DNA of 63,779 nucleotides, counting the filler, from Folioceros fuciformis (taxonomy: Eukaryota): assembly GCA_049999805.1 (NCBI GenBank). It is 9 parts of 9 records of this genome, joined end to end, with 100 filler letters (N's around TTAATTAATTAA, not from the genome) between each part and the next. Parts side by side here need not be neighbours in the genome. Positions count along the whole stretch, not along the records: positions 7,649 to 21,348 come from JBNGIO010001997.1; 8 more parts are not named here. One strand, written 5' to 3'. A program made the translations under genes and the position numbers. The notes beneath the pieces were generated by a model. It saw only the letters and a program-made list of their open reading frames with translations, did not search any database and was not told where the DNA came from. Numbering within the stretch: the first letter of the stretch is position 1; the number at the start of each line of letters is the position of its first letter. Of this stretch, positions 1,550-62,472 are shown in pieces.

Positions 1550-4500
1550 TCAACAATCGTCTAGCTAACCCGTGGCCGTGGAAAATGTGAAGTAGGGGGT
1601 AGGGTGTTCCCGTCGAGAGGGACGCCGGCATGTGTGGAGCCCTAAGTCGGGCGTGTGAGGGCAAGTTGTGGCCTCGGGAGCGTGCAAAAGGGGTTGGGCA
1701 TAGGCGTGTGGGTGCCATGCTTAGACTTGCCATGGCCTAGCCCAAGTGCGCTAGGGGGCTGAGCATCCTGAGAGCAGGCAGCTGGATAAGCCAGGAGCAG
1801 GGCCAGGCTTGGTCGGCAAGTGGGTCGACCTGGTGCTATGGTGGATTCCGATAGGCCAGCTGATCGGCGGCTGCAAGCCTCGGTTGGATCCAACAGGCCG
1901 GGGTGACTGCAAGGTGGCTCGAGGCAGGGAATAGAAGGGAGGCCGGAGGCGGGTAGCTAGGCAAGCTGTCGGGCTAGGTAGGCTGGGTCTCGTGGGAAGG
2001 CAGGCTGGGCCGTGGCCAAGCAGCAGGCGACCAGCAGGCTGGCTACCTGGCCAAGGCTTGGAGCCAGCAACGGCCGGCTGTTCGGCCAGCAACGGCCGGC
2101 TGTTCGGCTAGCTAGGCTGGCCGGCTGGTCAAGGCTGGAGGTGGAGGCGAGCTACAAGGGCTTGAGCAGTCTAGTCGGCTAGCTGGACTATGGTCAGCCG
2201 GCGGCCTGTCGGCAGCATGGGGGACCAGCCAGAATGTTGGCAGGCAGCCAGGAGGGTAGTCGGACTAGCGACGGGCCGGTTGTTCAGCTATCCATGCTGT
2301 ACGGCTGGCTAAAGCTGGAAGAGGGGGCGGTGTGGACCCCGTCAGTTGTCTGAAGGCAAGGTCAGCTCCAATGGCTGCAATCAGGGCTGCTGGCCTGGGT
2401 CATGGTGAGTGGGCGGTAGGTCAGGCAAGCGACGGCGCTGTGTAGCAGGCTGAGGCTCGGCTAAGGACCCGGCGGAGTCTAGCAGGCAGGTGGCGGCACG
2501 GATCCTGCCAAACGGCTACAAACAAGCAGCCCAGTACCGGCTGCAGACGGGCAGCTTGGTCTGGCTGCAAGCAGGCAACCTGGCCTGGTTGCAGGCCGCC
2601 AGCCACTGCAGGAAGGCAGCCTCGCAGCGGCAGTAGGGACAGGGTGGTGTGTGGTTTTGGCCAGAGGGTAGATCCGACTAGGCAACCAGCGGGTTGGGGG
2701 AAGTCTTGGCCGGAGGGAGTATCGGATCGGCAGGCTGGCTGCCTACTAGATCTGAAAGGCAGGCCAGGCGGATCCAGGCGGCGGCGCTGGATCTGCGAGT
2801 GTACCAGGCCGGCAGGCAGGTTGGTCAACCAGATGGGCGGTCTGCCTGGGGAGTCGGCCAGCCAGGGTGCAGGCGGCCTGGCCGGGTGCTCGGGGCTGGC
2901 GAATGGCGGCCGGTTGGAAGGGGTCCTGGTAGGGGAAAGCCTGGCCAAATCGGCGAGGTGGCCACCAGGAGGCTAGCAGGCTAGCCGGGTTGGCTGATTG
3001 GTTGCGGCTGGAGGTGGCATGGCAGGGCCTTGGAGGACGGCCAGGCCAGCAGCGCGGCGGCAGCCGGTGGGAGACTTGCTGGCTGGTAGGTGAACATGGC
3101 AGGCTGGTCGGATCCCGAAGCCAGGCAGTCGCCCGGCCTGCTGGCAACTGGGGCAGATCCAGGCTGGTCGGGATTGGGGCTGGATCCGGAGGTTACCAGG
3201 CAGGCCGGCAGCGCAGGCAAGCCAGGGGTGGCGCCCAATCCTGGCAGGCTGTGGCTGGCCGATCCTGGAGCCAGGCAAGCGGCTGGCTGCTGAGGAGCAG
3301 GCAGCTAGCCGGGCTAAGCAGCAGGCAGGCAGCCCCGCAGCGGTGGAGGTAGGCCAGATGGGGGCAAGGCGCTCCGAGGGGCTGTGGCAGGTCTCCAGGG
3401 CAATCTATGGCAAACCGGTGGCCAGCTAGTGGTCTAGCGGGCTTCTAAGGAGCCTAGCCAATAGCCCAGCGTTCTAGGCAGCCCAGCAGCGTTAGCTGCG
3501 CCAGGCAGCCAGGCCGGGCAGGCTGGCTGGCTAGCCAGATCTGGAAGGCAGACAGCGAGACAAGTTGCTGGAGCGCTGGCTGGAGCATGGCCAGGCAGCA
3601 AGGCAGCCAGGCAAGGCTGCCAAATCTAAGCAGATGCTGGCCGGATGGCCAAACAACCCAACCCGGCCTGGGCAGTAGGAGGTCGGCGGAGCTAGGCCAA
3701 AGCCAGGAAGGTTGGCGGCTGGCGGGCTCGCCGGATTCGGACCAGGAGCGCAGGCAGGCCAGGTGGGTGTGGTCGGCCTCGCGGGACGCTAGAGGCGGGC
3801 TGTCGGTAGGGTGCTCTGGGCATGGCAGACCGGGGCAGGGTTGAGGTAGGCCGCGTGGTGGCGGTTTAGCCGGATCCGCAGGGGTGGCAGGCTGGGAGCC
3901 TGATATGGACTACGGCAGCTGGCCAGCGGGCTCAGGCGGCCCCCTGGCTAGATCAGATGGCAGGCTAGCTGCGACTAGTCGAGCTGGGGCCAATCAGCCA
4001 TTGGGCGGCTGGCGGCCGGCTGGGGGAATCCAAGCAGGTGGTTGGCCTAGCGGCAGCTGGTTGAGGAGCGGGCAGCCCAGCCTGGCCAGGCAGCCACGCA
4101 AGGCTGCCAGATCCAGGAGGCGGCCAGAGTCCAGGTCGCAAGTGGCCGGATTCAAGCAAATAGGGGGTCGCGCATCAAGGCTGGTGCAAGCGAATTGAAA
4201 CCAGACAAGCGGCTGGCTGCAGGGGGCAGGATCCGGTGGAGGCAGGTAGGTTGGTCGAGGCCGGGTAGAGCAGCCCGGCTTGCGGGCAACCTGACTAGTT
4301 GACGAGTAGACTGGCTGTAGGGGAATTCAGCCAGATAGCCAAGCCGATCCGGCTGGCTGGCAGGCGAATCCAAGCCCAGCCGGATCGTTTAGGCTGGCCG
4401 GGATCGCGTTTGGCAGGTTGGCTGGCTAGAAGGCACCGAGAGGCCTGGATCAGGATCTAAGCAGGCGGCTGCTAAGCGGGCGGACTGGATCCAAGTGGTT

Positions 4501-7648: not shown

Positions 7649-8659
7649 TCATTTCTTCGTCCTAGTGTGTGTTTTTCGTGGGATCCTTTATCAAAACAAT
7701 GGCAGCCTATGCCACCTTTGTCATTTCTTCCACGTTGTACGGCACGTCCAGATTTATCACCCAAGATTTTGGCGAGTGATAAAGGTTTATTAGTCACAAA
7801 AAATTACTTTCAAGATTTCATGTATGTTTGTAATCCCATGACAACTTTGTACAAAAAACTGTCACCCATGGTTGGGTCTATCAATCCAAAGGTAGTCCAC
7901 ATGATTACCGACATCAAAAACAAAACATACAAAATCTATGCAATCTCATTCAAGGATGACACCACTTGGGGAGGCTGGAAAAAATTAGACTCTGATTTCA
8001 TAGATTTAAACAACAGCTTCTCAAGAATCGAAATGTATGACTCTGCAATCGGTTCATGGACTTTGATGCCCAGCACTGCTCCTACTTCACATGCCGCAAA
8101 AATGATGCAAGATTTCTTATTTTTTCCATTATGCATAGGCAGTGTGTACTATGGTGGACAAATCTATTGTCTGTGTCAAAGAACAACAGGTGATGTACAA
8201 TGTTGTTTGCTCCGGTACAACATTGAACAATGCGAATGGAGAGGTCCTGACGAAGTTCCTGTCAAATTAGGTTGGTTTCCTGAGATAGTTGTCTGTGGAG
8301 TTCACGTGTTTTTATTGGGTTATCATCCTGAACTTTTTGGTCGAGGGTTTAGTATCTATAAGTTTAACCCAAAGCTAGAGGAAGTTAAGCTCGAAGTAGT
8401 AGCACCTCCAGATAAAAATGAAATAATTGTGCAGTGGAATGGTTTTAAAGCTGTAGCATTCAACAACTTTATTTGCATATCCTCTCCAAATTACGAACAT
8501 GGAATTTTGTATAATGTGATTAATAAATCTTGGGAAAATTGGGACCATCCTAGTTCACTCATATGGCCCAGAGATGATGAGTTTTTCCCCTTTGCACCTG
8601 ATACTGTGACAACACATTTTTTGGCATTTGAAGCAAGCATCACTGCGTCTGTAGATTAA
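7649..8659 (+). CDS. F-box/kelch-repeat-like protein, C-terminal beta-propeller region; 5' end lost in the gap
   Basis: Plant F-box/kelch signatures: WDPLSKQW..P.LSFLP, LASDKGLL, YVCNPMT..YKKL.PM, EMYDSAIGSW, LYNVINKSW, and a terminal AFEAS. Intronless. Confidence 0.78.
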   Translation, partial: SFLRPSVCFSWDPLSKQWQPMPPLSFLPRCTARPDLSPKILASDKGLLVTKNYFQDFMYVCNPMTTLYKKLSPMVGSINPKVVHMITDIKNKTYKIYAISFKDDTTWGGWKKLDSDFIDLNNSFSRIEMYDSAIGSWTLMPSTAPTSHAAKMMQDFLFFPLCIGSVYYGGQIYCLCQRTTGDVQCCLLRYNIEQCEWRGPDEVPVKLGWFPEIVVCGVHVFLLGYHPELFGRGFSIYKFNPKLEEVKLEVVAPPDKNEIIVQWNGFKAVAFNNFICISSPNYEHGILYNVINKSWENWDHPSSLIWPRDDEFFPFAPDTVTTHFLAFEASITASVD

Positions 8660-8898
8660 TTTGTGCATATTAAAAAATATTTAGTGGAAAGTTTAAGAAG
8701 GTGATGTAAAAGCATATCAAGAAAGCAACAAATAAATATGGCTGGTACAAATTGTTTACCTATTTGTGCAACAAAGAAGTTTGAAGAAATTAATTATGTT
8801 TTAAAAATATTTGAGTATAATATTTTGTTTTATTATTGTAGAGTAAGTGGTATGCATATGGAAATGAGACTTATTTAAATTGCTCAAAGTTTAAGAGC

Positions 8899-10347
8899 AT
8901 GCCTATAACACCAGTGTATAAGTGGAAAGAGAGCAAAACATGGGTGACAATTGATGTGAGCTTTGGATCTGTTACTCCAAATTCGGCAGATATTACGTCA
9001 ACTGAGTGTTTCATTCGAGTAACATGCTTTCCTTATCTTTTCCAAGTTGATCTTAAAGGAGAGATCAATAACCAGAAAAGCTCGGTATCTATAGGAAGAA
9101 ATCATGTGAGTTTCTTTTTAACAAAGAAGGAAGAAGGGTTATGGGGACGACTCACAGCCACAGGTGACAAGGAGAGGTTGTTAGAGAGACGCGAAAGTTC
9201 ACTAGAAGCTTATAGATTACACTCACAACAGGCAAAGGAATCAAGGAAAGCTAATGTCGCTCAATTAGGAAGAGCTATAGTTGGGAAGCAGATTAGTTTA
9301 GAGGATTCTAAGCGTCAAGTTATTGAAAACCGGAAAAACCAAGAGCTCAACCTTGAAAGGAATGTTTTACAATCTTGGCAAACGTCTTCCAAGATTGTGA
9401 AAACTGCACATAAGAATTGTAATGCAGCAGTGAAGGTTGGTTTCAATTGTGATAAGAGAATTGAAGTGGAACAAAAGCCATTGAAAGAAGAAGTGGATGA
9501 GTTGTGTGATTGTGCTGGATTTGAGAGTAAGAGTTGTCAACCTTATGGGAATGAAGAGGAAAGCATGCAAGAAACAATTCTTCCAGCTCCTAGGGCATAC
9601 AATGTTGTTCCTATAAGGTTCTCACAGAAATGCATTCCTCTTCATCTACCAGCTCGAGAAAGCAGGAACAATGAAGTCAAGTTGAAACCCAACACATCTC
9701 ATTTGACAAGTGATGTAGATAAAGTGAATGATGTTTCTGAAATAGTTCCTATCTTCCAACAAGATCAAGCAAATCGACATTTCAAAAATGCAGATTTTGG
9801 TGCAGCTATTGAGCACTATACTTCAGCTATCCAGAAGGACCCTAGTATGACACTTTGTTATGCAAATCGAGCAGCTTGCTATCTGCAAAGAAAGAGCTTT
9901 CAAGCTTGTGTGGATGATTCTACAATTGCAATTGATATGTTGAAAAGGTTGATTTCTACAGCAGCTCAACAGCCTTGGTCCATTTCGACCAAAACCACCA
10001 TTTCTGCACTCCTTCAAGAACAAACATCTTGTTCTTCCAATGTATCTATGATTTCAGACTCTCTTCTAAGGCATGGAGATGCATTATACTTGTTGACTCC
10101 CCTTGTTGAACCTCGTAGTCTTCGATTGAAGAACGATGACCAAGAAATCTATCAATGGAATGTTGTTATGTTGAGTTGTGTTTTACTTAGAAGAGGTGTT
10201 GCCAAGTGTGAGTTGGACCAACTACATGAAGCTTGCTCAGACTTGAAAGAGGCATTGCATTTTGATCCTACAAATGAATGCATTGCCAACTCTCTCAATG
10301 AAGTGCGGTGTAAGATAGTAGTGAAGAGTGATACTTGTCATAACTAA
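8899..10347 (+). CDS. DNAAF4: Dynein axonemal assembly factor 4 (DYX1C1/PF23-like): CS/p23 domain, coiled coil, TPRs
   Basis: N-terminal CS-like MPITPVYKWKES...FPYLFQVDL...FFLTKKEEGLWGRL, a central PAPR...LPARES motif, and C-terminal TPRs (AIEHYTSAI..DP..CYANRAACYL; LLRRGVA..EL..A..DLKEALHFDP). Single exon of 482 aa. Confidence 0.85.
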   Translation: MPITPVYKWKESKTWVTIDVSFGSVTPNSADITSTECFIRVTCFPYLFQVDLKGEINNQKSSVSIGRNHVSFFLTKKEEGLWGRLTATGDKERLLERRESSLEAYRLHSQQAKESRKANVAQLGRAIVGKQISLEDSKRQVIENRKNQELNLERNVLQSWQTSSKIVKTAHKNCNAAVKVGFNCDKRIEVEQKPLKEEVDELCDCAGFESKSCQPYGNEEESMQETILPAPRAYNVVPIRFSQKCIPLHLPARESRNNEVKLKPNTSHLTSDVDKVNDVSEIVPIFQQDQANRHFKNADFGAAIEHYTSAIQKDPSMTLCYANRAACYLQRKSFQACVDDSTIAIDMLKRLISTAAQQPWSISTKTTISALLQEQTSCSSNVSMISDSLLRHGDALYLLTPLVEPRSLRLKNDDQEIYQWNVVMLSCVLLRRGVAKCELDQLHEACSDLKEALHFDPTNECIANSLNEVRCKIVVKSDTCHN

Positions 10348-14783: not shown

Positions 14784-16399
14784 GGTTAGCTCCTTCTAAA
14801 CCAATTCCTGTGCGCGGCAGAGAGGGTCGGCCGCTGGCAGGATGAAGGAGAGGGCGCGGAGATCAAGGGCGCGGGCGCGCGCGGAAATGCGGATGGAAGC
14901 GTGTGCTGCGTACTGAGCTTGGCAGTGAGAAGTGGCAGCGAAACTCCGGAAGAGACAGCCGATTCTCAGTCTTCGCACTGCTTCCAATATCACCAGTGGA
15001 AAGAGAAAAAGATGCAGCACTACCGAAGTCGATATTTTGCGGGGGAAGATATTCAAGCACTGCAACACCCTATGTATGTACTAGGGTCAAGTGACTACGA
15101 AACGGAGTCACGGCCCACGCGGGCTTTAACAGGAAAAGAAATAAGTTTTTCGCTCACACATATCGCAGTCCATCGTGCCTACTTCTGCACTCAAACAAAT
15201 CCTGTACGGGCACAAGAGGGCTGGATGGAGCAGTGGGTGCTGCATTCTGCATTTCTCGTGCCATTATTTACATTTTCTCGATTAATCCAACACTACCTTG
15301 CCCGACCTCATATGCTTCAATATGTAAGAATCCTTCAAAGTGTATGATATAAATTGTGGTTGTTCATTATCCTTCTATCTAAGCCTTAGAGTTTGATTTC
15401 CGTGCGGTGATTCTATGCTTTCACATATCACTCTTCAAGTAAGTTTCAAGCTTACAATACAGCTCCAACCTTGGATGTCAATACAATGCAACAAATGACC
15501 AAAAGGTAGCAAGTTTCAAGGAAACACCATAGTCACAACTTTCCTTCATTCCCAAGGTTGCCCGAAGTAAATATGGACGATATTTTGCATCTCTTAAGAT
15601 GTAGAGCATTTTCCATCACCCTAAGCAACAGAAAAAGATTATACTTCCAAGTCCCTCCATTCATAGCAATTTTTAGCTCATTATGTTTAGCACATTAACC
15701 AATGTGTGGAGAAAAAAAACCCAGTTGAAAACATATGCAAAGCCCAGCCAAAATCTGATAGCTAGCTAGCTTTCTTGAAGAGCAAAGGCGGACAGAGATG
15801 GATTCTTCAAATTTATGCCTACCTCAGGCACACCTGAAGAATTTCATAAAGTCACGTATCTACTCAAACACGTATGGTGGTTCCCCACCATGGAACTCTT
15901 CGCACCTACAAAGAAAACATAGTATGTGCCCGCTCATGGTGGTTGCCCACCATGGAACTTTGCAAGTACAGATGTATCCAGGTGACAGCAAACGCTTGAT
16001 GTACGTACGGTGACAGTGATGGATAGACGGAACGGTGTCGTGTGGGTCGGATGAGAGTAGGCGAAGTGTGTGGATCACTCCTTGGATGTGGATGCTTAGA
16101 GGGAAGGGCAGCGTGCTTGAGCATTTGAAGCACTTGCTTCGCGTGGTGGTTGGGGGGAGGAGGCTTGTTTTGTTGGTGTTCGAGAAGCCAGAGCTTGTCC
16201 TGGGTGTCTCGTATGATGAAGGCGCGCTCTTCTTCGTTCGGATGGTTCTCCCAACACTGGGCGGAGCATCCGGAACAGGAATCCCTTCATTCCGTGTGCT
16301 TACAGTTCAGGCGGAAGAAGGCGTTTTGAGGTTCCGGGCTCCCGCTTTCTCGTGTGGTCATGCTCTGAGACTGGAGCTGTGGCTGTAGGGATTCCTCGG

Positions 16400-19180
16400 A
16401 TGGATCAACTGGATGAAGCGAAGAAGATTGTGGATAATAATAGTGCAATGCTGCGCTTTGCAGCCATTGCAATGACAGACTGGCTTGGGTTACCTTCATT
16501 CCCTATGGTAGCCAGTGTTGCCCCTCCTCGTACTGGTCCGGTTCCGCTTTGTTCCAAATGCTGGGGAACGTCTAGGGCAGGGACTCGTGCCGTGCAAGTT
16601 CCTGGACTCCAGCCTGGACATGGGCTCGGCACCACTGCGTCGGCGGAGTTCCACCCATTGATGAAACTGGTGGAAGAGTATGTGGCTGGAGGTCAGTACA
16701 GGCTCGAAGGCTTCGGGAACAGGAAGCCGGAACCGCTTTTTCAAACTGTGCGAAAGCGAGGTGTGTCCAGTACCTCCCGCCGCCTTCTGCGGGGACTACA
16801 CCGGCTTGCATGCAGACATCAGCGGTAACCTCATGGTAGCTCGAACATTTCCCTGGATCTGGATGCTTAAATTACGCTGGAAGCATCTTGGAGCCTGTTA
16901 TGTGAATTCGATGGGGGTGGTGGTGTTGTTTCACAAGCTTGAGCAAGCGCCTGTGTGTGTTGTACCGTAAAAGGAATGTTGCCCACTATGATGCGTGTCT
17001 GTTTACAGGGACATGCGTGTTGGAGTACACGTCGTGCATCTGTCAAGTGGCGAAGAAGTATCCCTTCGGAGTCGTGCAATTTTCCCTCTGGCCAGCATCG
17101 CCAAGCTGCCAATCATGGTCGAGGCAGCTCTGCAGTTGCAGGAGTCAGAGGTGAGCTTGAGACGCTGCTGTTTAGTGGGAATCGGATGAGCTACCTTAGC
17201 CACGGCTAAAGGTTAAGTCTGATGTATCTACGACGATACTACACTGCAGGAAAGAAATGGCTCATTGAAACTGAACTCGGCCATCACTGTGAAAGAAGGA
17301 GATAAGTGCATTGGTAGTGGCCAACTGTGGAAGAGGCGCAGGTTTTGCGTGCTATGCAGGCCCTGCTTTCGCTGGAGTTCATAGTCTACTGTCCTGTTGC
17401 AGCATCTCGGGCTAATGCACTTTTGTGTTCTCCGTTGTGTCACTGCCAGTAATTCTAAAGTAAGTTTTGGAAAATGTTTGGAGCTCATGCAGACAATTTC
17501 TGACAACACAGCAGCCGACCTGGTTAGTGACACCTTGTCTTCTATTTGTTTCTTTTAAGTAGGCAGATTCTTGTTCAAACGAAATGCCTAGAAGCGATGA
17601 AACTTGTGTGTAAAGTTGTAGCTGTTTGATTTCAGGTGCTGCAAAGAGTAACCCTTCCCAGTGTCCAGCAGCGGATTGTGAATCTTGGCTTGACTGCAAC
17701 GGATATCTGTCTTTCTCAACGGCAGGTGACGCATGTTCTACTGTACTTCTGCTAAGCCACTCTATCGTTGGCGTGAATATCGAAGCAGTCGTTAGCCAGT
17801 GATGCTAGTCAAGCTTCTGTGCAATCCATCTTAACATCAATTTCTAATGTGTTAGCATTTTGGACTACAGGCTTACCTCGTGGCTATGGGCAAGGCTCCC
17901 AGTATGAAGGGGATGTCATCCCGGCAGATAGCCAATATGTATGTTCCGTAACAGGCAGTCTTGGGTGATCATTGTTTGCTCTTGTCGGTAAACAGCGTTT
18001 GTTTTCATTTCTCATCCTTTCCCCTGCAAGTATTTCATGTTTGCTCTCTTGTAGTTACGACGAAGTCGAAGTCAATTTTTTTTTGCTTCTCCTCTTGACA
18101 TGCTTTCTAGCTCAGGTGGAAAAGATTGACACCAGATGAACGCCTGCAAGTAGCGCAAGAAACCGAGGCTGCAAATAGAAATTTAAGCTTCCTTGAGTTC
18201 AATGGGATTGAGGTCTCTGCTGAGAAGTTACTGGAGGTACTGATTGTCAAGGCTGGTATTGATTGACACTGCTGGAACTGATTGACGGATCTGATTGACA
18301 CTCTGGGTACTGTCCACATGGTGGCGGTTATTATCTTAGTTGCTCACCACGTGTGGACGGCTGCAGTTGGAGAAAAGTTCCCGCAATTGGAGAGACAATC
18401 TAGCAGTTGCTGCAGCTGTGGACAACAGCGGCTCTCCTGCCGATATAGCACACTTACTGTCGATGCTGGCACGTGGAGAAATTCTTTCGCAAGCCTGGAC
18501 GAGCCACTGCTTGTCTATTCTCGCGAAACAGGTTTGCATTTCAGAAACACAAACTAACTTTTGCTGTCCCCAAACGACCTTCAGACTTCACGTGCATTCA
18601 ACTTAAGCTGCTTGTTTCTACTGATGCCTAGGAGCTTTCTGCATGTTGAACTCCCTTTGACCTCTGTTTGCTGCAATTGCTGTGACAAACAGAAATGTGG
18701 ACAACGACGGCTCCCATGTTACCTTCCTGAGTCCACCCCAATCTACCACAAGACCGGCAGGTAACGTCGTGATTGCAACCCCTTTTTTTTTCATCCTTGC
18801 TGTGAGGAAAGGATATCTATCCACTGCTCTACCGAACAATTCGGCAGTGTTTTGGTAAATCAGCGTTGCAGGGGTTGCACATGATGCTGGCATTATTCAA
18901 GTAGAAGGTGGACGTGATCATGTCGTTGTCTCGGCCTTTGTGGATCGCATCCAGCGGGTACGGCCAGGGTCCTTCTTTCCAGCTGTTTGGCGTCTTTGTG
19001 TTGTGGACTCATTGGGCGCCACGCCTTTGTCATATTTCTGAATGTTTGTTTGAACTTCTCATTTTTTCTCTGGGTTCTGTGCAGCATCGCGAGCGGGAAG
19101 CTGAGGCTGTTATTGCGCGAATCGGCCGCCTGATTTACAAAGCATACTCAACCCAAGAAATGCGCCCGAGAGCCGTCTAA
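16400..19180 (+). CDS. Class A beta-lactamase-like / PBP-fold serine hydrolase, ~11-12 exons; start codon uncertain (ATG 16400 or 16448)
   Basis: Hand-spliced GT-AG exons in consistent phase: ..16677, (16816-16824), 17009-17150, 17250-17341, 17450-17522, 17636-17725, 17871-17938, 18117-~18237, 18367-18531, 18693-18760, 18864-18957, 19085-19180. Motifs: FPLASIAK (SxxK 17094-17105), ISDNTAAD (17499-17507), DNSGSPAD, HKTGS (18750-18758), AHDAGII. Confidence 0.88.
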
Positions 19181-19353
19181 AGTAGACTTCGCGTTTCGCC
19201 CCCATGGGATTCTTGTACCAATTCTTGCCCACGTATGTGGCTCATTTTTTTGGTCAACTGTATATTCTGTAAGAACGAGCACTACCCAAATGGATTAACG
19301 GTATTCCGTCTGTAGTCCATTTGCCCAAACTACTCCAGCACCCTCTGTAGTCC

Positions 19354-21005
19354 ATGGCGGTCGTGGAAGCTCTGCCTATGCTTGTGGAGACCGACGAGTC
19401 TCGTTGTGAGGATAGAGCACCAAAACCTCTCCGTTGCCCTCCCAGTGAGTGTGCTAGTGAGGACCGAGCTCAGAAGCCTCTCTGTTGCCCTCCCAGTGAG
19501 TGTGCTAGCGAGGATCGACCTCAGAAGCTTGTCTGTTGCCCTCCTAGTGACGATGGAGCAAAGAAGCCTGTCTGTTGCCCTCCCAGTGAATCTGCTTGTG
19601 GAGATCGAACACCGAAGCCTCTTTCTTGCCCTCCCATTGCAGGAAGACAAGGGATAGCAATGGCCAAGGCACTTGCACAGACGAAATGGGAGGGTGAGCC
19701 CTGGGAAAAGCTGGAGTTGATACACAAGGAGATTCCCCTTGGTGCAAAGCCAGGATATGTGCTTCTGAGGATGCAAGCGCGGGGTATCTCGCATATCGAT
19801 ATAGATCTCATCCGCTTCAACCACTTCGCAAACACAAATGTTCCCCAAATTGTCCATGGTGTCGAAGGCCTGGGCGTCATAGAAGCGGTGTGCGAATTCT
19901 CGGGGGCCCACATGTGCAGCACAGTGTTGTTACGCATCTTTCGCCGTTTTGACTGTTGGATGTTGTCATTAGGTGGGAGATGGCGTGACTGGCTTCACAG
20001 AGGGCCAGAGAGTATGCCCTTTTCAGCTTCACAGATTCCAGGCCACAGGCCAAGGCACATGGCAACAGTATCTTGAGGTGCCTGCAACCGAAGCCTTTCC
20101 CGTTCCAGAGCACGTCACCGACGAGGTTGCAGCCCAGATCTTTGGAACTCCCTTCACGGTGGTCTCCCTCTTCGAGCAGCTGCAGATTCCCAAGGGCGAG
20201 TTTCTGATCCAAGCCGCCACCAACACTGTAGCTGGCAGGTACGTGCTCCTCTCTATCCAGGAAATGCTTAGTGCAGCTTCACGTGGTAAGGGGGTGGCGG
20301 TGGGTTGGTTTAGGATGGTTATCCAGTTAGCCAAACACCTCGGCATCAAAACCATCAGTATCATCAGAGGACTTCGAGGCGGCGTGAAGGAGGAACTGCT
20401 GGAGCTGGGAGCAGATGAAATTATCACAATTGCAGACGGTACGTACTCCCGGTGAACGCTACCCAGTCGAACCGATATCGTTCCATCCAAGCCTCTCAAC
20501 TGAAGTCCGTCGATGACTGTGTGCAGACATACCGGAGCGTGTGAAGCATATCACCGGCGGCAAGCTTGCTTATGCTGCTGTAGATGGAATGGGAGGAAAA
20601 CTCACACAGGTTCGGTTCATGAAATGCATCCGCAGCTAGCCACTCTCATGTTCCAGTTGTACAAACTTTAATATTTTTATGGCTTGGTGGGACTGTGGCC
20701 AACAGAGAGTGGCAGCTTCCGTGAGAGACGGGGGACAGCATTTCGTCTACGGGCTTCACTCTGGAAACGACTTCAACGTGCCGGGGTCTGAGCTAGCTCG
20801 GCATGTTAACGTCCGAGCCTGGTCGCTAGCCAGCCACTTGAAGACGCCTGGAGATTGCTACCGGCTTGGCAACATCGTACTGGACTTGTCCAAAAGTGGG
20901 GTTCTCCACCTTTCTGGCAAGAAAACGTTTGGATTGGAAGCTTTTCGGGACGCTATCAGAGAGTCGATGATAGCTAAAGAAAGCAAAGTTTTGATCGTTG
21001 GCTGA
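19354..21005 (+). CDS. Medium-chain dehydrogenase/reductase (enoyl-thioester reductase / quinone oxidoreductase-like), multi-exon, with a Cys-rich repeat N-terminal extension
   Basis: GxEGxGVIEAVGDGV motif (HGVEGLGVIEA|VGDGVTGFTEGQRV), GTWQQY, FLIQAATNTVAGRMVIQLAK, LLELGADEII, ITGGKLAYAAVDGMGG, and C-terminal KVLIVG*. Confidence 0.87.
19405..19636 (+). repeat. ~51-bp (17-aa) in-frame tandem repeat, 5 units: EDRxxKPLCCPPSECAS
   Basis: The tgccctcc core recurs five times (aagcct.tctgttgccctcccagtga in the best-conserved units); one unit is shortened. Confidence 0.92.
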
Positions 21006-31202: not shown

Positions 31203-32750
31203 TCTCCTCTCCTACACTTGCACGTAGACTGGAGTCGATCCTATTGACAGGGGGGTGGGGGTGGTGAAAGCTGCATTTGTTGGAAGTGTTTAGATTAGCA
31301 ACTCGTATTAATTAGGACTTATTAAGGAGGCGGTTAATAACCGTTTTCATCAAACTTCATATGCGCCACGTCGTGCAAACTCTAATAACCGTTTTTTATT
31401 GTTCTTGCCTCAAGTTTTGCTCACGCACGATCGCTGCTCCCTTGCTCAAGCGTGCTATGATCGATCCTACCTAGCAATCTTGATTTATCGCGATATGGTA
31501 TTAGAGCTAGTGGAGATGGCGCACTTGGGTGTGTTGATTTCTTGACCTGGCGGCCGCTAATCCGCGCGGCGCACACGCACTTGAGAGCGGCCAGAATTCG
31601 TCTATGCAGGCAGCACGGCTGAGATGGATTGTTGGATGCAGCGCGGCGGCGTGTGGCAAAGGCGCAGGCGGGCGGCGACCTGGTTGCGCACTTGCGTGAG
31701 GGGCTGCCGGGCCTGGTGGAGTGTAGCTAGGTGCTGGCGGCATTGCTAGGTTGTTGTATCCAGCAGTGTACGTGCAGTAGTAGGCAGCCCGGAGTGAGGC
31801 AGCAAAGGCGACGTTGCAGCCAGACCTGGAGCACAAAATTTGGTGGATAAACTACCTAGCGCAGTTCATAGATCAAGACCTGGCACTACTGATGGATCGG
31901 GCAGTTGAAGCCATGCCGGCGAGAGAGGAGACTTTGTCCCTACATCCCAAGCACTAGTGCTTTCCCGGTGCGCAAGCGTGCAAGGCTTGTGCTCCGTCGA
32001 TCAAGTGGGTGCTGGAAGCTCTGGAGATTGTGGTTTCTTGAGAGGATTGGACGATCCAAGATGGGGAGAGCAGCGATACCGCTGCTGCTGATGCTGACAT
32101 GCATCAGGTGACCATGGAGCAATCTCGGCATTGGTGGTTTGCTAATCGGCGTCAAGAGAGGAGGCCAACATGCTTCGATCCTTGCGAATCCAAGAGAAGA
32201 GGGCGCTACCAGTCCTATGACCCCCCGGTGTACAGTTGATGCACCTGCTGCGGGTGCAACTCAAGACACCTCATCTTAAATCCTGGAGTACGGCTCAGAT
32301 GAAGGCTTCGATCAGGCACTTGAGTACCAAGTTCTAGCGAGCATTAGGGGCTTGTTCCAAGAGGGTGCCGAACAATCAGAAATGGACGAGGAAGCCGACC
32401 GTAAGCGTGCAAGGAAGGAACAGGAGAGGTTAGAAAAACTGAGAGCGGATAGAGAAAAGGAAAGAAGAGAAAGGGAGGAGAAGGAACGTGAGGAAAGACT
32501 TAACCATGAGAGACTCCCATCTGTGAAGGTTGATTTCAAGGAAAAGGACCGCCTTACCAACGGAGCCAACTATGATGTGTGGGTGATGCGCATGCGTGGT
32601 TTCTTGAGGGAGGCTGGCTTGTGGGGACACGTCACAGGAGAAACTCCAAGGCCGGATGATGACATCCTTAGTTTCCGAAGCACTTCACCTGGACAGCAGC
32701 GCTGGTATCAGCTGGATGAGAGAGCACAAGGCATTATTCGTATTGGCTTG
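31203..32750 (+). mobile_element. Ty1/copia 5' portion: putative LTR end, primer-binding site (31496-31507) and gag N-terminus, interrupted at 32751
   Basis: TGGTATTAGAGC is one mismatch from the tRNA-iMet PBS TGGTATCAGAGC. The gag motif LTNGANYDVWVMRMRGFLREAGLWGHVTG...W.QLDERAQGIIR is present. Confidence 0.85.
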
Positions 32751-33284
32751 TGTGAAACTCCAAAGTTTGGGGTAGTAGTTTATTTTGGTTGAAAAAGGGT
32801 TAATAGTGGTATGGTTTGGTTTTCTTTTTCAACTTATTTTCCCTAATTTTCCTTGATTTTCTGGTCATTTTTCCTATTTTTCTTTGTGCTAATTAGGTTA
32901 ATTGACCAGGAAATAGTTGGTTTGGTTATAAGAGTGGGTATAGGTTTGGTCCCAGACCTGGGAAGGTTTAGGTTCGGTACCAGGCCATAGGGTTGGGTGA
33001 TTAGTTTAATATTAATTAAAGATATATAATATTAAATTAGTAAATAATATAATAATGTCAAATAAAAATAATATAATAATGGTTTGAACATAGGAACGGG
33101 TATCTGGGTATGTCAGTGTCAGGGGTCAGGGTCTGACGATAGGCTGGCTGATTGCTTGGCTGGCATGACCATGCCCTAGCTTGAGCTAGAGGCAGGGGTT
33201 GCGGCCGCCTCCATCCCTTTCCCCCCTCTCTCCCTTTCTCCCTTCCTCCTCCATTCCCTTCTTGCCCCCTCTCCTTCTTCTTCC
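32751..33284 (+). mobile_element. Gypsy-family LTR inserted into the copia gag
   Basis: Begins TGTGAAACTCCAAAG. The first ~110 bp are nearly identical to the LTR start at 5236, and gag similarity stops exactly here. Confidence 0.85.
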
Positions 33285-33641
33285 NNNNNNNNNNNNNNNN
33301 NNNNNNNNNNNNNNNNNNNNNNNNNNNNTTAATTAATTAANNNNNNNNNNNNNNNNNNNNNNNNNNNNNNNNNNNNNNNNNNNNGTTATACCTTGACCAC
33401 ATAGTATCTTGACGTTCTTGATATCTCTGCCATTATGGATATCCTTAGGATTTGTTCTGGTTGCAAGAAACCCTTATTACATCGCAAGTGGTGGTATTTT
33501 CTAGGCTGTCATCCTGCACCATTTACAATTGTTGTACAAGACAATAATGACTTTATTAGAATATGACAAACCTAATAATTTTATTTTATTTTATTTTGCT
33601 TTGAAAGTAATTCTCACTATAACTCAAATGCATGCCACACC

Positions 33642-33793
33642 TACTACATAAGACAATAAAGACATTATCAAATGACTTCGATCTTACTATGATCTCTTAT
33701 CGTGCCTTTGGGACATTCTTACTACATAAGAGAATAAGGACATTATCAAATGACTTCGATCTTACTATGATCTCTTATAGTGCCTTTGGGACA
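33642..33793 (+). repeat. 78-bp tandem duplication
   Basis: tactacataaga.aataa.gacattatcaaatgacttcgatcttactatgatctcttat.gtgcctttgggaca occurs at 33642 and 33720. Confidence 0.93.
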
Positions 33794-34769
33794 AGAATGT
33801 GTAGTCTTAATTATTGTTCATCATTCATGGAAAGCTTCAAAACATGGAATAGGTCCGATATGGCTAAAGCAAACCCATAGTTAACGTAGTTTTTGTCACC
33901 CATGTTATGTTACTAGGGTCTGATTCTCATTACTTTAGACTATTTTCAAATTAAAAAGCCATTGTCAAGTTGAAGTGATACGGAGGCACAGACTAGACTA
34001 GGAAAAGTGTCGTGCTGTGCCGCTAAACATCGTACTCATGCATGGTTCATTAATTAATAATATTCACACAATGCTACATTACACACAATAAACATTGCAT
34101 GATGGTGTTGCAGCTCGATAAGAGTGAAGCGTTTGCTTCCTTCTGACACCACAAAATTTCCTCCACCTGCATCCACACTTTTTAGAGCTGTAACTTGGCT
34201 TCTCAAATCCTCGATTAGGTCACATGATCTTGCACATTGCGCACACACACACCTCAACTGGATTTCCAACAAGAGAATGCTGCTATAAAACCCTAAGCTT
34301 ATTCTCAGTAGGCAAGAGAATACAAGCTTACAACTGTAGTAGACACTATTGAGCTAGGCTTTTATGCTTGCTACTTGAGACCTATTACAACCACATCCAC
34401 ACATCTAGTTGTGTGTTTATCTAGTTGAATTTATATTATATTTTTTAATCATTTTCCCTAAATAGTTATTAATTACTATTAATGCTATTGATTAGTATCA
34501 CTTAATTATTAACTAATTACTATTTGCATGCATCTAAGCGATAGCACACAATCATGCTTGTTAGTTGTCATACCTTAAAACTTGGACACCCAAGGAGGTC
34601 TTGAGCATAAATACTCTAGCCTATTCTCAACTTAAGCCGCTTTCACATTCATCTTACCAAAAAAACAAAAAACCACAAAGTCTCGTACTTCCTGAGGCGA
34701 TTTCTAAACATTTTTTCATCTACAATTGGCTATCATAAACCACCCCAAAATGTAGTAGCGAATTTTGCT

Positions 34770-35540
34770 TAGGTTTGGCCCACCGCTTAGCGTTTTCTCT
34801 CTCTAAATGCGATTGTGGGGTTGCCATTGTCGACACAGGCTCCCATTTGGGGCATTGTCTCACTGGGGGGCACCATATTGCCATCTATGATACAGTTCAG
34901 GATGTCATCTTCTCAATGGTTAGGAGTGTGGGTTTCTTCCGTACAAGGAGCATCCATATGTGCAATGGGGATTCATTGAGAGCCGACCTTTTTTTCACTA
35001 GGGGGGAACAAGTTTATGTCGTTGATATGGTTGTTACAAATTTCGCTAGGAAGTCGATTTGCAAGCACATCATCATCAACCCCCTTGAATGGTCAGCGGA
35101 GGGTTGTGCAATCGCCAAAGTCCATGAGTATTTTTTTTGCAAGATGGGCATGTTTTCATCCCCTTACTCATGAGATTTATGGGGCTATGGGCAAGGATTT
35201 TTCAAGGAGTGCACCAAGGTTTATCAGAGTCACAGGAAGGATGTTCTCCCTCTTTCCTTTGTGGTGGCCTTCTTTCGACAATGCATATCCACCGCTTTGC
35301 AAAGAGCTTCGGCCAACGTAGTTTTAAGAACAGCAACAAGTGCAGGTTGAGTAGCTTTTTCAGCATTGGTGGTACGTAGGCCTTTTGTTATTCCACATCA
35401 TAACATTTTAGATAGTTTTTGAAAATATTGTTTGAAGGGACTAGTACCCCCTTTGGCCTTGCTCGGGTTGTTCCTCCAATCTTTGGAGTAGATAGGACTT
35501 TTTATCTCTTTTTCAATAATAAATAATAATAAATAAGAAC
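34770..35540 (+). mobile_element. 3' remnant of a non-LTR retrotransposon with restriction-like endonuclease (CRE/R2-type), frameshifted
   Basis: CDCG..(8)..HLGHC..GG CCHC knuckle, IYDTVQD (degenerate RHD/RHN position), RADL...VVD (PD..D), AIAKV (K), then FHPLTHEIYGAMG in a shifted frame. An AAT-rich tail follows at ~35514-35537. Confidence 0.7.
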
Positions 35541-37321
35541 TAAAGACATGCACACTTAAAGAGGCATTAGTTTCAATTTTAATAACTACTCTTATGTTTA
35601 AAGTTTATACTGCTTACTTAATTGCTTTTGCTCTTACACACAATTGCTTCTACTTATACGTTGTGTCATAACTCCATGACAATAGATTTCCATCACATTG
35701 AGAGTCATATAGCATGGAACTTTCATTCTCTTTTGCTAGTTTCCATCACCTTAAAAGTCATATCGCATGGAACTTCCATGCCCGTTTTGATGGCTTCATT
35801 CCTAAGTGGCATAGATTGCTTCTTGTTGCACAATTTGTTTGATAGGGTAGCTTCTGGGTTTGTTGGGCCAATCACTAACATAGTGTTCTAAGCTTTTATA
35901 AAAGCCTTCATGCTGTCATTGTTCTACTCCCTTGTCCTCTTGCTCTTGTGCTCTTGCCCTGGTGCGCTGAGCTGATACGGTGCAATATGATTATTAACTT
36001 CCATTTTTTACCAAAATAAAAATTAATATCATCACACCTCTAGACAAAAATGGCCGCGCAAAAATTGCTGGTGCTCATGTAAAACATTTCAAACTACGAA
36101 TAGTTTTAGCGTGTACATATGTAGGTAGGTTGTTGCTCTGGAATTACATGAATACGAGGCAAAGCCAGTCGGAGGCTTTTCATATGATAGGCTCGACAGC
36201 AAGAGCCTATGACACCTTTCAGACGCGGGTCGCAGTGAGACAGAGAAGTTGGGAATAGTCACGGCTCAGGTCCTCGAAGGAGCTGCGTCGCTGCTTGGCT
36301 GGGCCCCCGTGAAGGCGGCTTGCAAACCCTCCCTTCAATCGAACCGATCGCGGGAGGCCATCAGCCGCTCACTGGATCCTGAGGCCAATTTGAGCGGAAG
36401 CTACTGGGAAGCTCCACGCAAGGACGAGAAGGGCGAGGCGAAGAAGCAATCGAGGGAAGCGTGATGGCAGATCCGAATTTCCTCACATTTGTGGCAATTT
36501 TGGACACACCATGGCCTGCTTTCTGCCGGGAATATGATAGTGGAGCGCAGATTCCGGGCTGGGTGGACATGTTTGCAATTCGGCCCCTTTGCATTTAGAT
36601 CAGTGGTATGAATTGAAGNNNNNNNNNNNNNNNNNNNNNNNNNNNNNNNNNNNNNNNNNNNNTTAATTAATTAANNNNNNNNNNNNNNNNNNNNNNNNNN
36701 NNNNNNNNNNNNNNNNNNGTTGTGGACTTAGGCTAGAAAATAGGAATGTTGTGACTTAGCGACGGTGGTGGCAGCCGAACCATCGTCGCGGAAAACCAAA
36801 CGGCGGTAACTGAACCCGGATGGCCTGACAGGGATAAAATCCAGAGAGAAAACTCAAGTTTAATTTTCAAACAGGAGCGCAACCGTGGTAAGTGGAGAGC
36901 GATCGAGGTGGACGAGCGACGGTCAGGAGCGCAACTGCGGCCAGTGAAGGCAGGAGCGGCGGCGGTCGACCAGAAGAGCGCGGAGCATCGGCGACCGAAC
37001 CCGCGACAAGCAGACACAGGGAGAGATGGCGCGTGAGGGAGGAGCATCGCGGCTAATATGAGTGGACGGCACATAGGAGCAGCCTCATCCGCCAAGGGTC
37101 GAAACGGTCTTCTGGCCAAACATAAAGCACTAGTGGGTTAGGGTCGGAGGACTGGTGGAGGAGCTGGGCCTCGGGTCATGACCCAGCGCTGAAATCGCGC
37201 AGCCCCAAGTTTGGTGCAGGAATGCACTTAGTGGCTTAGGAGCCTGGCTAGAGAAGAGGGGATTCGAGGGAACCCGTAGGAGTGGAACCTGAACATGGTG
37301 AGGAGGGTGTAAAGACGCAGC

Positions 37322-41047: not shown

Positions 41048-42807
41048 ATGGCATTCAGATGGCAGGTTCCGCAAGGAGTGGTCTTGGGTGTCTTGAACTT
41101 GGCAGCAATGTTGGAGCACGCAGACGAGGCCTTGGTCCCAGCTGTGTATGCGGAGATGGGTCTGGTTTTTGGAGTAGGACCCACGGCACTGGGATCCCTT
41201 ACGTTTGTGAGAGCTCTGGTGCAGGCTCTCACGTCGCCCTTGTCCGCGTATTTGTCAACCCGGTACAACAGAGCACACGTGATTAGTATGGGGTGCGTGG
41301 TCTGGGGCACTGCTACTGCGCTTGTGGGCCTTTCCACTGCCTACTGGCAGGTCTTCAACCCTACTCCAATTGTTCTGCTGTCTGATGCCATGGCTTCAAT
41401 GCGACTGCTTCGATGTTTCTGCGTCTCTCAGACAGTAGTAGGCTTCATTTTGCGCAGGCAATTCTGGCCCGGGCTGTCAACGGAGTAGGTCTTGCGGTGG
41501 TTGTTCCAGCCATGCAGTCGTTGGTGGCAGATTTCCACAAAGACGAGGATCGGGGAATGGCTTTTGGATGGATGCATGGAGCTGGACAGATTGGGACTGT
41601 TGCAGGTGGTATATTCGCCACTGTGATGGGGCCTCACACCGTCATGGGAGTTGGCGGTTGGAGGGTTGCTTTTGTTGTTGTGGCTCTGTTGGGCTGGCTA
41701 GTTGGTGCTGCAGTCTCCACTACTGTGAACGATCCCTTTCACTCTCAACAAAGTTACGATCGGCTCGGGTGTGTATTTTCTGGGATGCAGTTGCTTTGTA
41801 TATGCTTTTTGGTGCTTGTGAGATAGCATTGGGAAATCGGGTTGTGATCAGCCACTTGAATGCTTGTCAACAGTGTGAACCCGGAGCTTGTGGTGGACAC
41901 GGTGGAGCAGAAGGAGACGAAGCAGCAGCCATTCACGCACCAGGAAATATGGGATGGGACCAAGACTGTCTTGTCTATCCGGACATTTCAGGTGATTGTT
42001 GCCCAAGGGATTGTGGGTTCCACCCCATGGAATGCAATGGTCTTTCTCACATTATGGATGGAGTTGCTAGGATTTTCCCACGGTTTATCTGCCTTTCTTG
42101 TAGCCCTACTGTCCCTGGGAAATGCAGGGGGGTCTGTATTCGGTGGATGGCTCGGCGATCAAGCAGCATACCACTTCCCTGATTCTGGCAGAATCATGTG
42201 CTCTCAGTTCAGTGCAGGGATTGGCATTCCCCTTGCTGCCCTTCTCCTTTTAGGACTTCCTAAAGATTCAGGCGCTGCATGGATCTATGCAATAGTGCTT
42301 TTGTCCATGGGATTCCTTATGTCCTGGAACTCCCCTGCCACTAACTGGCCAATTTTCTCCGAGATTGTTCCCGACCAGCTTCGTACCACAGTGTATGCAT
42401 TGGACATGGCCCTGGAGAAGTCACTGGCGGCGGCAGGGGCACCACTGGTGGGGATTCTGGCGGAGCATGCATTCAGCTTCCACAAGGTTGAGAAGGATAG
42501 AGATGGAACCGTTTCCAAGGATCTGGTCAACGCGAACGCTTTGGGCCATGGGCTCTATTTCTGCATAGCGGTGCCGTTCCTGTTGTGTGTTCTTGTCATC
42601 ACGCTGTTGTACCGCACGTACCCAAGGGACAGGGATCGGGTGCGGACCATGAGCACCTCATTGGACGATGGCAAGGCCCTGCAAATGGAGGACATTTCTA
42701 GGCAAGTTTTGCGAGACTGGGATGAAACTTGGAACGCTTTGTTGGAGGACGCGGCAGAAGATACTGCGTTCACAGACAGATCTACGCTGATAACACCTAC
42801 GCCCTGA
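41048..42807 (+). CDS. Major facilitator superfamily transporter (Spinster-like plant MFS), 3 exons
   Basis: NLAAMLEHADEALVPAVY, RYNRAHVI..G, RAVNGVGLA.VVPAMQSLVAD, DRGMAFGW, FQVIVAQG..GS.PW, P.TN.PIFSEIVP, LYRTYPRDR, plus multiple hydrophobic segments. Confidence 0.92.
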
Positions 42808-49419: not shown

Positions 49420-50158
49420 GCCGGACGGAGCCACAGCTAATGCACTTCACTGCAGCAGCAGCAGCTCTGAACCATAGTCTCCACTCCAAGCATCACAATG
49501 CGGCATGGGACGCCCTCTGAGGCAGCTGCTGAACATATTGACGAGCCCAACTCTTGCACGACAGACACCCATATGCATATGCATAAGCACACAAACGAAT
49601 TGAACCCAGCTCCCCGAGCTCTCCAACCACACCACACGCACACAGAACGGGCACTGAGCTGCACGACTCGAGGTTTATTCAGCACGCGCCAGAGCCCTCG
49701 CCAAGCCTTGATGCAAGAACTCCGTACACAGCGTAATAACAGCAACGATGGCAGATCACAGGGAGCAAGAATTCATGACGGCCTTCACAGTGCGATCGTG
49801 ATGCCGCATGCCAGAGGCAAGCAGCAGCGGCAGCCCTAGAGCTACCCAGTCTCGCTTCCAGTCCATCACATCAAGTCCAGGCACGGCTAGCCCGGTCGGT
49901 CCGACCCCGAACTAGGGGACACTTCATGAACATGACACACTGTCCCTAGCCGAACCGGGAGGTGTCGGGCTCCGTTTGGTCACCGGCGATAGCCGGTCAC
50001 TCACGTCGGGGCTTCCTAACGTCTCTCTTTACTCGTTGCGTTGTGAATCGGGCGTGGGTCTCCCGCCGTCGCCTCGGCTTTGAACGATTTGAAGTCCGAG
50101 AGAGGAAAGGAAAGGAGGGGAGAACGGAGGGCGAGATTCTGTCCTGGGCGATGAGAGG

Positions 50159-61026: not shown

Positions 61027-61126
61027 NNNNNNNNNNNNNNNNNNNNNNNNNNNNNNNNNNNNNNNNNNNNTTAATTAATTAANNNNNNNNNNNNNNNNNN
61101 NNNNNNNNNNNNNNNNNNNNNNNNNN

Positions 61127-62372: not shown

Positions 62373-62472
62373 NNNNNNNNNNNNNNNNNNNNNNNNNNNN
62401 NNNNNNNNNNNNNNNNTTAATTAATTAANNNNNNNNNNNNNNNNNNNNNNNNNNNNNNNNNNNNNNNNNNNN

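Follow-up and report, generated by a model that had tools for sequence, protein, structure and literature searches.

Class A beta-lactamases and their relatives resembling penicillin-binding proteins (PBPs) are a textbook example of how much can hang on a single loop residue: Glu166 makes the difference between destroying antibiotics and acting on the cell wall as a peptidase. Canonical class A enzymes have their SDN and KTG motifs 104 residues apart, and their omega stretch takes 16 residues from Arg to Asp (Ambler numbering). Here we analyse a gene for a protein of this fold, located at 16400..19180 (+ strand) of a 63,779-nucleotide stretch of DNA (the window) from Folioceros fuciformis (GCA_049999805.1). 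The omega loop of this protein is replaced by an 84-residue domain of five helices, predicted with high confidence. The protein is probably an acyl-serine hydrolase of the PBP-A kind that combines the class A fold with an inherited omega domain, and no canonical beta-lactamase.

Three described proteins are close enough for comparison. PBP-A of Thermosynechococcus elongatus (2J7V/2J8Y/2J9O) is a DD-carboxy/endopeptidase that lacks the omega-loop glutamate and turns over peptide substrates; adding the glutamate raised its beta-lactamase activity 90-fold, still five orders of magnitude under a natural enzyme (PMC11189452). For wild-type LRA-5 from a soil metagenome (8EO5-8EO7), the authors give Val166, no deacylating water and a biologically insignificant beta-lactamase activity (PMC12777564). 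MSMEG_6194 of Mycobacterium smegmatis, likewise class-A-like and devoid of the omega-loop Glu, was described as a DD-carboxypeptidase and not as a beta-lactamase (bioRxiv 10.1101/2025.11.20.689485); it is likened here by that description only, which mentions no large omega insert in its abstract.

The gene model was rebuilt from a three-frame translation of 16200-19250 and checks of the exon borders. Its open frame of 477 codons and a stop is spread over eleven exons on the + strand (16400-16824, 17009-17150, 17250-17341, 17450-17522, 17636-17725, 17871-17938, 18116-18236, 18367-18531, 18693-18760, 18864-18957 and 19085-19180), and all ten introns are of the GT-AG type. Scanned as 11 separate translations, exons 2 and 8 each exceed the Pfam cut-off for PF13354 (Beta-lactamase2) on their own, with 30.5 and 28 bits, and exon 4 falls slightly under it (18.5 bits); exons 5 and 6 gave no Pfam match and exon 7 sub-threshold chance matches only. 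A search with exon 8 found an orthologue of 482 aa, P0001, which is 80% identical over this exon and collinear with the window protein, no gap interrupting the match between residue 143 and about 476. With 75-81% identity over the domain, P0001 served as a stand-in for the window protein in searches and folding.

The catalytic Ser-x-x-Lys, S171-I-A-K174 (17094..17105, +), is followed by S237-D-N (17499..17507, +) and K412-T-G (18750..18758, +). By homology we take S171/K174 to be Ambler S70/K73, SDN to be 130-132 and KTG to be 234-236. Among 53 distinct sequences of the long-insert family discussed below, the Ser, the Lys and the KTG motif are conserved in 53/53 and SDN in 52/53, the exception being a gap in a truncated protein. 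Judged by these motifs (S171, K174, S237-D-N, K412-T-G), the acylation machinery is intact. Approximately the first 120 residues (16400..16760, +) form an N-terminal extension absent from bacterial homologues, and extensions of 120-210 residues are found in streptophyte-algal proteins generally. The bacterial homologues are about 350 aa long; by eye, their N-termini are mostly hydrophobic and signal-peptide-like, except in two basal clades that have no such N-termini.

Profile scores place the family within the fold and outside the canonical class. P0001 reaches 156.5 bits with PF13354 (gathering cut-off 22), while all four proteins scored against NCBIfam NF033103 (bla_class_A) fail its cut-off of 200 (P0001 108.9, P0002 122.1, P0004 106.8 and P0012 124.9 bits). 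With canonical class A enzymes the protein shares the fold, the three acylation motifs and the conserved Arg and Asp flanking the omega region, provided that these are R164 and D179, as we infer. It differs from them in its score below 200 bits, in lacking ExxLN (Glu166 with Asn170) and in having 84 residues from Arg to Asp instead of the canonical 16. With the PBP-A family it has in common SxxK, SDN, KTG and a class A fold without a glutamate at the linear omega-loop place; it has neither the short loop of that family nor a position in the cyanobacterial clade. Short cyanobacterial forms have an SDN-KTG spacing of about 97-103 residues versus 175 in the window protein.

Among solved structures, the best sequence match to P0001 is TLL2115, which is PBP-A (2J7V/2J9O, E 2.3e-22), followed by LRA-5 and 4EWF (phmmer). 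Foldseek also puts PBP-A on top, with a template modelling (TM) score of 0.89-0.90 on the target; the alignment runs to 343 columns although this target has 265 residues, and all targets listed are between 255 and 283 residues in length. VIA-align, run on 48,161 PDB representatives, returned LRA-5 (8EO5, Z 34.8, 266/270 residues aligned), 6V4W (Z 34.7) and PBP-A (Z 33.9, 263/265). The PBP-like kinship implied in the first-pass annotation of this DNA is supported: the nearest solved relatives, PBP-A and LRA-5, have no Glu166 and are not effective beta-lactamases. LRA-5 shares the class-A-like fold and differs in its size (270 residues), its omega loop of normal length and its lack of a helical omega domain. 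The class-A-type VIA matches align at most 270 of the approximately 357 residues of the folded part (about 121-480), and the insert is covered by none of them. The longer alignment of 2XEP (323 residues, root-mean-square deviation 4.8) spans model range 1-477. As the whole P0001 model, not the insert alone, was used in this search, we make no claim of a new fold for the insert.

In the rebuilt gene model S237 and K412 are exactly 175 residues apart, the distance estimated from the DNA at first pass. The excess had been placed at 17700-18430, between LGLTATDI and DNSGSP, and these landmarks are indeed residues 261-268 (17684-17707) and 356-361 (18421-18438). Three comparisons measure it: against the NCBIfam class A profile, P0001 fits 326 residues to 249 positions (77 extra); against PF13354, 294 residues to 213 positions (81 extra); and 89 of its residues stand opposite 11 of PBP-A (78 extra). 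In the last of these, phmmer aligned residues 134-274 with 18-152 of the PBP-A chain and 364-477 with 164-273. The extra residues, about 68-78, are situated between the invariant R273 and D356; short relatives in our alignments have spacings of 97-109.

We refer to the stretch from R273 (17720-17722) to D356 (18421-18423), 84 residues inclusive, as the omega domain (17720..18423, +). Exons 6 and 7 code for it, together with the last bases of exon 5 and the first part of exon 8. From linear offsets to the SDN serine and to the conserved proline after DN, R273 and D356 presumably correspond to R164 and D179 in Ambler numbering. By such offsets the stretch would stand at the expected place of the omega loop, and, if the R164/D179 equivalence holds, the insert would be an expansion within the loop and not beside it.

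The stretch is predicted to be well folded. The AlphaFold2 model of P0001, built on an 82-sequence alignment, has a mean predicted local distance difference test score (pLDDT) of 82.8, with block means of 83-99 in the catalytic domain and 87-98 in the omega stretch, where five helices are predicted (280-287, 299-308, 311-324, 330-346 and 350-362). The N-terminal extension begins in this model with a conserved helix (residues 3-26) and is then disordered (27-124, pLDDT <50). For the bacterial homologue P0012, with 39 sequences, the mean pLDDT is 96.4, the predicted TM score 0.93 and the stretch block means are 90-97; its helices are predicted at 165-172, 184-193, 196-210, 215-224 and 230-240. 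The helical character read at first pass from the letters alone therefore agrees with both models, in which the insert has five helices.

The insert is shared by a family. In an alignment of the window model with P0001-P0060, 49 of the 61 rows have an SDN-KTG spacing of at least 160, eight rows have 130-140 and four have 101-109. In the long forms the spacing is about 165-170 in bacteria and 166-194 in streptophytes. Five long loci were found in GTDB (L001-L004 and L063; 72/80 loci scorable) and four among 75 scored loci on metagenome contigs (L081, L082, L097 and L110). The bacterial homologues that the first-pass annotation suggested looking for thus exist: about 45 bacterial or metagenomic protein clusters share the insert, Vulcanimicrobiota/Eremiobacterota among them, as do all streptophyte-algal homologues found. 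A profile of the long-omega form built from 39 bacterial members matched 23,280 of 1.84 billion representatives at E<=0.001 and 2,671 at E<=1e-30, and the spacing is at least 160 in 31 of the best 150. The long-omega subfamily appears to be small and rare.

Between residues 266 and 362 only R273, W298, D356 and N357 are invariant in all 53 distinct long-insert sequences; in the extended set of 76 distinct sequences R273 and W298 are each present in 75 and D356-N357 in 76. The window protein has all the marks of the family, namely a spacing of at least 160 (175) and the invariant Arg, Trp (W298, 18117..18119, +) and Asp-Asn. Its omega stretch is 76% identical to that of P0001, where the core, taken in two parts, has 75% and 81%; with the bacterial P0004 the stretch has 42% identity and the same core parts 43% and 41%. 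Because the insert is conserved like the rest of the domain, it is a real feature and not a product of chance. Bacterial members (P0004, P0012; metagenome-assembled genomes of Vulcanimicrobiota/Eremiobacteraeota and Candidatus Bruticola) share R273, W298, D356, N357 and E329, the predicted five-helix layout and 25-43% identity over the whole domain. The streptophyte-algal proteins stand apart from them by having introns, the N-terminal extension and a domain longer by 6-9 residues. The omega domain thus appears to be inherited from a small bacterial clade, most members of which look secreted, and to be no lineage-specific insertion.

Relatives with PF13354 (L001-L160) fall into discrete classes of SDN-KTG spacing (about 97-103, 114, 128-136, 140-149 and 165-170), and the long insert is matched over its first half by the 130-140 class. 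Judging from the discreteness of these classes, the omega region is a site of repeated, stepwise enlargement. Several other relatives (P0129, P0136, P0138-P0141, P0143 and others) have 580-770 aa and four profile-matching stretches, and resemble tandem two-domain forms of the short type. Searched alone in the ESM Atlas, the insert (P0001 275-363) had a best score of 0.84, under the 0.9 lead level, with PF13354-type clusters only. The literature searched, subscription papers lying outside the search, yielded no paper that deals with the long-insert subfamily or with any class A-like gene of streptophyte algae; one source mentions 'beta-lactamase' as one of the horizontally transferred genes of plants and gives no further detail (PMC9667741).

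All named eukaryotic homologues among the 120 listed of 166 matches belong to streptophyte algae (Klebsormidium, Chlorokybus, Mesotaenium, Spirogloea and Closterium), and no land-plant protein is among these 120. Two quick maximum-likelihood trees were built, one of 85 rows (P0006 twice) and one of 82 rows with 21 further representatives. Support is given as the Shimodaira-Hasegawa-like approximate likelihood ratio test (SH-aLRT). The streptophytes form a clade in both trees (99 and 98), which lies within that of the long-insert bacteria (100 and 99); in the second tree the clade also includes P0135 and the long-branched P0037. In the first tree, the only one with cyanobacterial short forms (L032, L034 and L047 of Nostoc and Calothrix), the streptophyte clade stands apart from them, so that the streptophyte-algal protein also differs from these forms in its place in the tree. 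Long-insert sequences make one group in both trees (91 and 95), except L063, a long-branched Halomonas protein placed elsewhere. Taken together, the trees suggest a single old horizontal transfer from bacteria of the long-insert clade to streptophytes, the direction and date of which are inferred. P0135, a relative of 902 aa, is sister to the Chlorokybus protein and has an N-terminal extension of 547 residues without a Pfam family.

Expression and splicing were assessed with contigs of two sequencing runs, X1 and X2, aligned to 16000-19600 of the window. The RNA nature of both runs was guessed, and they were treated as RNA-derived since their contigs carry GT..AG joints. By likeness X1 comes from the same organism (12/12 aligned pieces at least 99% alike, no differences listed) and X2 from a relative (90-99% alike). 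X1 has GT..AG joints at nine of the ten model junctions (17150/17250, 17341/17450, 17522/17636, 17725/17871, 17938/18116, 18236/18367, 18531/18693, 18760/18864 and 18957/19085), that is, at all but intron 1 as modelled. X2 has joints at all ten introns, 16824/17009 included; four of its joints are listed without GT..AG ends, three of these with one extra letter between the sides. The joints around the insert (17522/17636, 17725/17871, 17938/18116 and 18236/18367) are present in both runs. Since the contigs carry these joints, exons 5-7 are retained in transcripts, and the skipping of these exons that was considered at first pass is not seen. The alternative exon-7 donor proposed at the same time, with a spacing of about 167, can be set aside as well, because the joint seen in the contigs is that of the donor giving 175.

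X1 also includes unspliced contigs across introns 3, 6 and 9 (17312-17476, 17911-18145 and 18731-18871; depths 10.5, 34 and 11.8), and the interiors of introns 1 and 8 have zero X1 coverage. This suggests partial intron retention rather than a general carry-over of DNA. The 5' leader is covered by transcripts at 16118..16399 (+), X1 record 1 beginning at 16118, and contains four ATGs upstream of the start codon at 16400 (16213, 16216, 16242 and 16360).

Bacterial contamination, or a decaying pseudogene with mis-spliced filler in place of an insert, would be suggested by the bacterial nature of the closest non-algal relatives, by a transcript form with a premature stop and by the introns kept in some contigs. 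Such an explanation is extremely improbable. The ten introns are of the GT-AG type, with joints in contigs of two organisms; the frame stays open for 477 codons and its product shares 75-81% identity with the orthologue, with the insert conserved like the core; and the neighbouring genes in the window are eukaryotic (reverse transcriptase, copia-type integrase, separase-like, MFS transporter and O-fucosyltransferase genes). The locus carries a nuclear gene that is expressed and belongs to a eukaryote of the plant lineage.

At the linear place of Glu166 an acidic residue appears to be absent. Counted from the SDN serine, this place falls on R273 or Q274, and from the conserved proline on N344-N348. 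The invariant R273 is followed by Q274 (17723-17725, +) and A275 in the window protein and by Q, P, A or T and then Ala in most of the clade, position 275 being Ala in 37/41 main-clade sequences. The E-x-x-[LM]-N motif has zero occurrences in the whole 477-aa protein, as first noticed in the DNA. The claim made at that time that Glu166 has no equivalent stands for the linear place, which is without an acid (Q274/A275), but it overlooked E329, described below, and cannot be extended to three dimensions.

Several observations weigh against a PBP-A-like enzyme, and one of them concerns this residue. E329 (GAG, 18210..18212, +) is an acidic residue of the omega domain and a candidate for a relocated general base or a structural residue. 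In a set of 76 distinct sequences, all 58 main-clade members, every streptophyte included, have an acid at position 329; the clade motif around it is approximately F-Q-x-[ILV]-E-[DN]-x-S, and the window protein has FNGIEVSA. Should E329 extend into the active site and serve as a general base, as it might, the protein would be a genuine beta-lactam hydrolase. Gene neighbours in bacteria give no pointer to peptidoglycan, and no biochemical result for any long-insert member was found in the literature searched. The two trees come from quick searches and disagree on the exact sister group among the bacteria: in the first the sister of the streptophytes is a clade with Vulcanimicrobiota metagenome-assembled genomes and P0012 (support 93), in the second a 41-row bacterial group including those (support 85, drawn open, with the long-branched neighbour P0164 set aside). 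How the omega domain lies in space with respect to S171, and whether R273 touches D356, is presumed. Finally, the intron 1 joints are 16834/17008 in X1 and 16823/17008 in X2 (cut +1 in both), X2 using the donor of the model. The sole X1 contig over this intron keeps 11 bases (16825..16835, +) by using a downstream donor (GT at 16836), which brings an in-frame TAA (16825-16827), and the open reading frame (ORF) from the ATG at 16400 ends after 141 residues. In this form a 344-codon ORF for the catalytic domain begins at the ATG at 16810. In the organism of the window the full-length protein is therefore backed by conservation with P0001 only.

A working hydrolase of beta-lactams or another fast hydrolase, in which E329 extends into the active site and takes over from Glu166 the activation of the deacylating water, would fit the intact acylation motifs and the distribution of acids. 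Position 329, acidic throughout the main clade, lacks an acid in 17 of the 18 sequences from the two basal clades, all 17 of which have Glu at 274 instead; seven main-clade members have both Glu274 and an acid at 329, and 51/58 have no acid at 274. The complementary pattern of 274 and 329 rests on few branches and at most a few events, however, and is a lead, not a statistic. The NCBIfam bla_class_A scores are far under the cut-off, and the three characterised close relatives are poor beta-lactamases (PMC11189452, PMC12777564, bioRxiv 10.1101/2025.11.20.689485). We consider such a relocated base unlikely.

Gene neighbourhoods were scanned with Pfam at eight bacterial loci of the long type (L063 not included; L082 cut at its upstream end), and no consistent gene partner was found among these neighbours. 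The peptidoglycan-peptidase reading rests on homology to PBP-A, not on gene context. In three of the eight loci, L001, L002 and L003, all of one subclade, a squalene/phytoene synthase gene (PF00494) lies directly upstream. It runs up to the beginning of the homologue or overlaps it (L001:73-990, L002:2947-4005 and L003:2985-4011, the last as two ORFs). L002 also has a CrtC carotenoid hydratase gene (389-1555). Two metagenome loci of a basal clade have an alanine dehydrogenase gene divergently upstream (L097:1231-2364 (-) and L110:71-1321 (-)), and L004, L081 and L082 have unrelated neighbours.

These synthase genes, with CrtC near one of them, could point to a hydrolase or acyltransferase acting on a substrate other than peptidoglycan, such as a lipid- or isoprenoid-linked ester or amide, with the omega domain making a closed hydrophobic pocket. 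The beta-lactamase fold does include esterases, as illustrated by the cephalosporin esterase 2XEP (Z 28.9) and the family VIII carboxylesterases in the VIA list. This too seems improbable: the synthase adjoins three of eight long loci from a single subclade, the other long loci have a leucine-rich-repeat protein, a histidine kinase, DUF885, a HAD hydrolase or alanine dehydrogenase nearby, and the best structural matches are of PBP-A type and not esterases.

The first-pass annotation favoured trapping over hydrolysis, that is, a non-catalytic binder or sensor holding beta-lactams or muropeptides as a stable acyl-enzyme beneath a helical lid. The lack of an acid at the canonical 166 position and the large domain predicted to lie, ordered and helical, at the mouth of the fold would agree with a trap. 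Nevertheless, the catalytic motifs are invariant across a divergence from bacteria to algae (25-43% identity), as for an enzyme, and no signalling domain is fused in the eight proteins scanned. In these eight long eukaryote-like relatives, the 902-aa P0135 included, only PF13354 was above the Pfam cut-off. The closest model, PBP-A, turns over peptide substrate (PMC11189452). The proposal is unsupported by these data, and we regard a trap as very unlikely.

For the preferred PBP-A-like hydrolase the following course can be proposed. S171 would be acylated by a substrate that is D-Ala-D-Ala-like or an ester/amide, giving an acyl-enzyme, and beta-lactams would be expected to acylate it as well. 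The natural substrate would be released without the canonical Glu166, as in PBP-A. The omega domain might serve as the floor or the cover of the pocket and set substrate specificity, with R273 and D356 tying the neck of the domain as R164 and D179 do in class A enzymes. The source of the gene would be bacteria of the long-insert clade, from which it would have passed horizontally into an early streptophyte. A bolder and rather doubtful speculation is that the omega domain is a new solution of deacylation in the class A fold, the base having moved from Glu274 in the basal clades to the Glu329 helix in the main clade, and that early streptophytes acquired from bacteria a closed-pocket hydrolase with a substrate unseen for this fold.

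The window contains several other features. Retroelement remnants are represented by a reverse transcriptase fragment (428-1231) and a copia-type gag-pre-integrase/integrase ORF (61083-62417). A major facilitator superfamily (MFS) transporter gene is found at 41860-42804, an O-fucosyltransferase gene at 47282-48118 (- strand) and a separase-like gene with tetratricopeptide repeats (TPR) at 50093-50980. A coding tandem repeat (19426-19634; period 51 bases with 2.5 copies, or 90 bases) has a Cys/Pro-rich unit and lies at the start of the next downstream ORF (19351-20076), which is without a Pfam match. Scans of the window for tRNA genes, Rfam families and tandem repeats gave nothing relevant to the gene. 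In 2-kb bins the G+C fraction reaches 0.67 at 2001-4000, compared with about 0.5 elsewhere, and bins 8001-10000 and 32001-36000 are A+T-rich (0.37-0.41).

The loop that holds the residue decisive for class A enzymes has, in the long-omega subfamily, been turned into what is predicted to be a folded five-helix domain with invariant residues of its own, over which no matched solved structure aligns. The named records of this subfamily come from poorly known soil bacteria and from streptophyte algae. For enzymology it offers a test case for a general base supplied from elsewhere. For plant evolution the gene is a candidate for an old transfer from bacteria to streptophytes, and its role may concern the peptidoglycan of plastids or dealing with bacteria.

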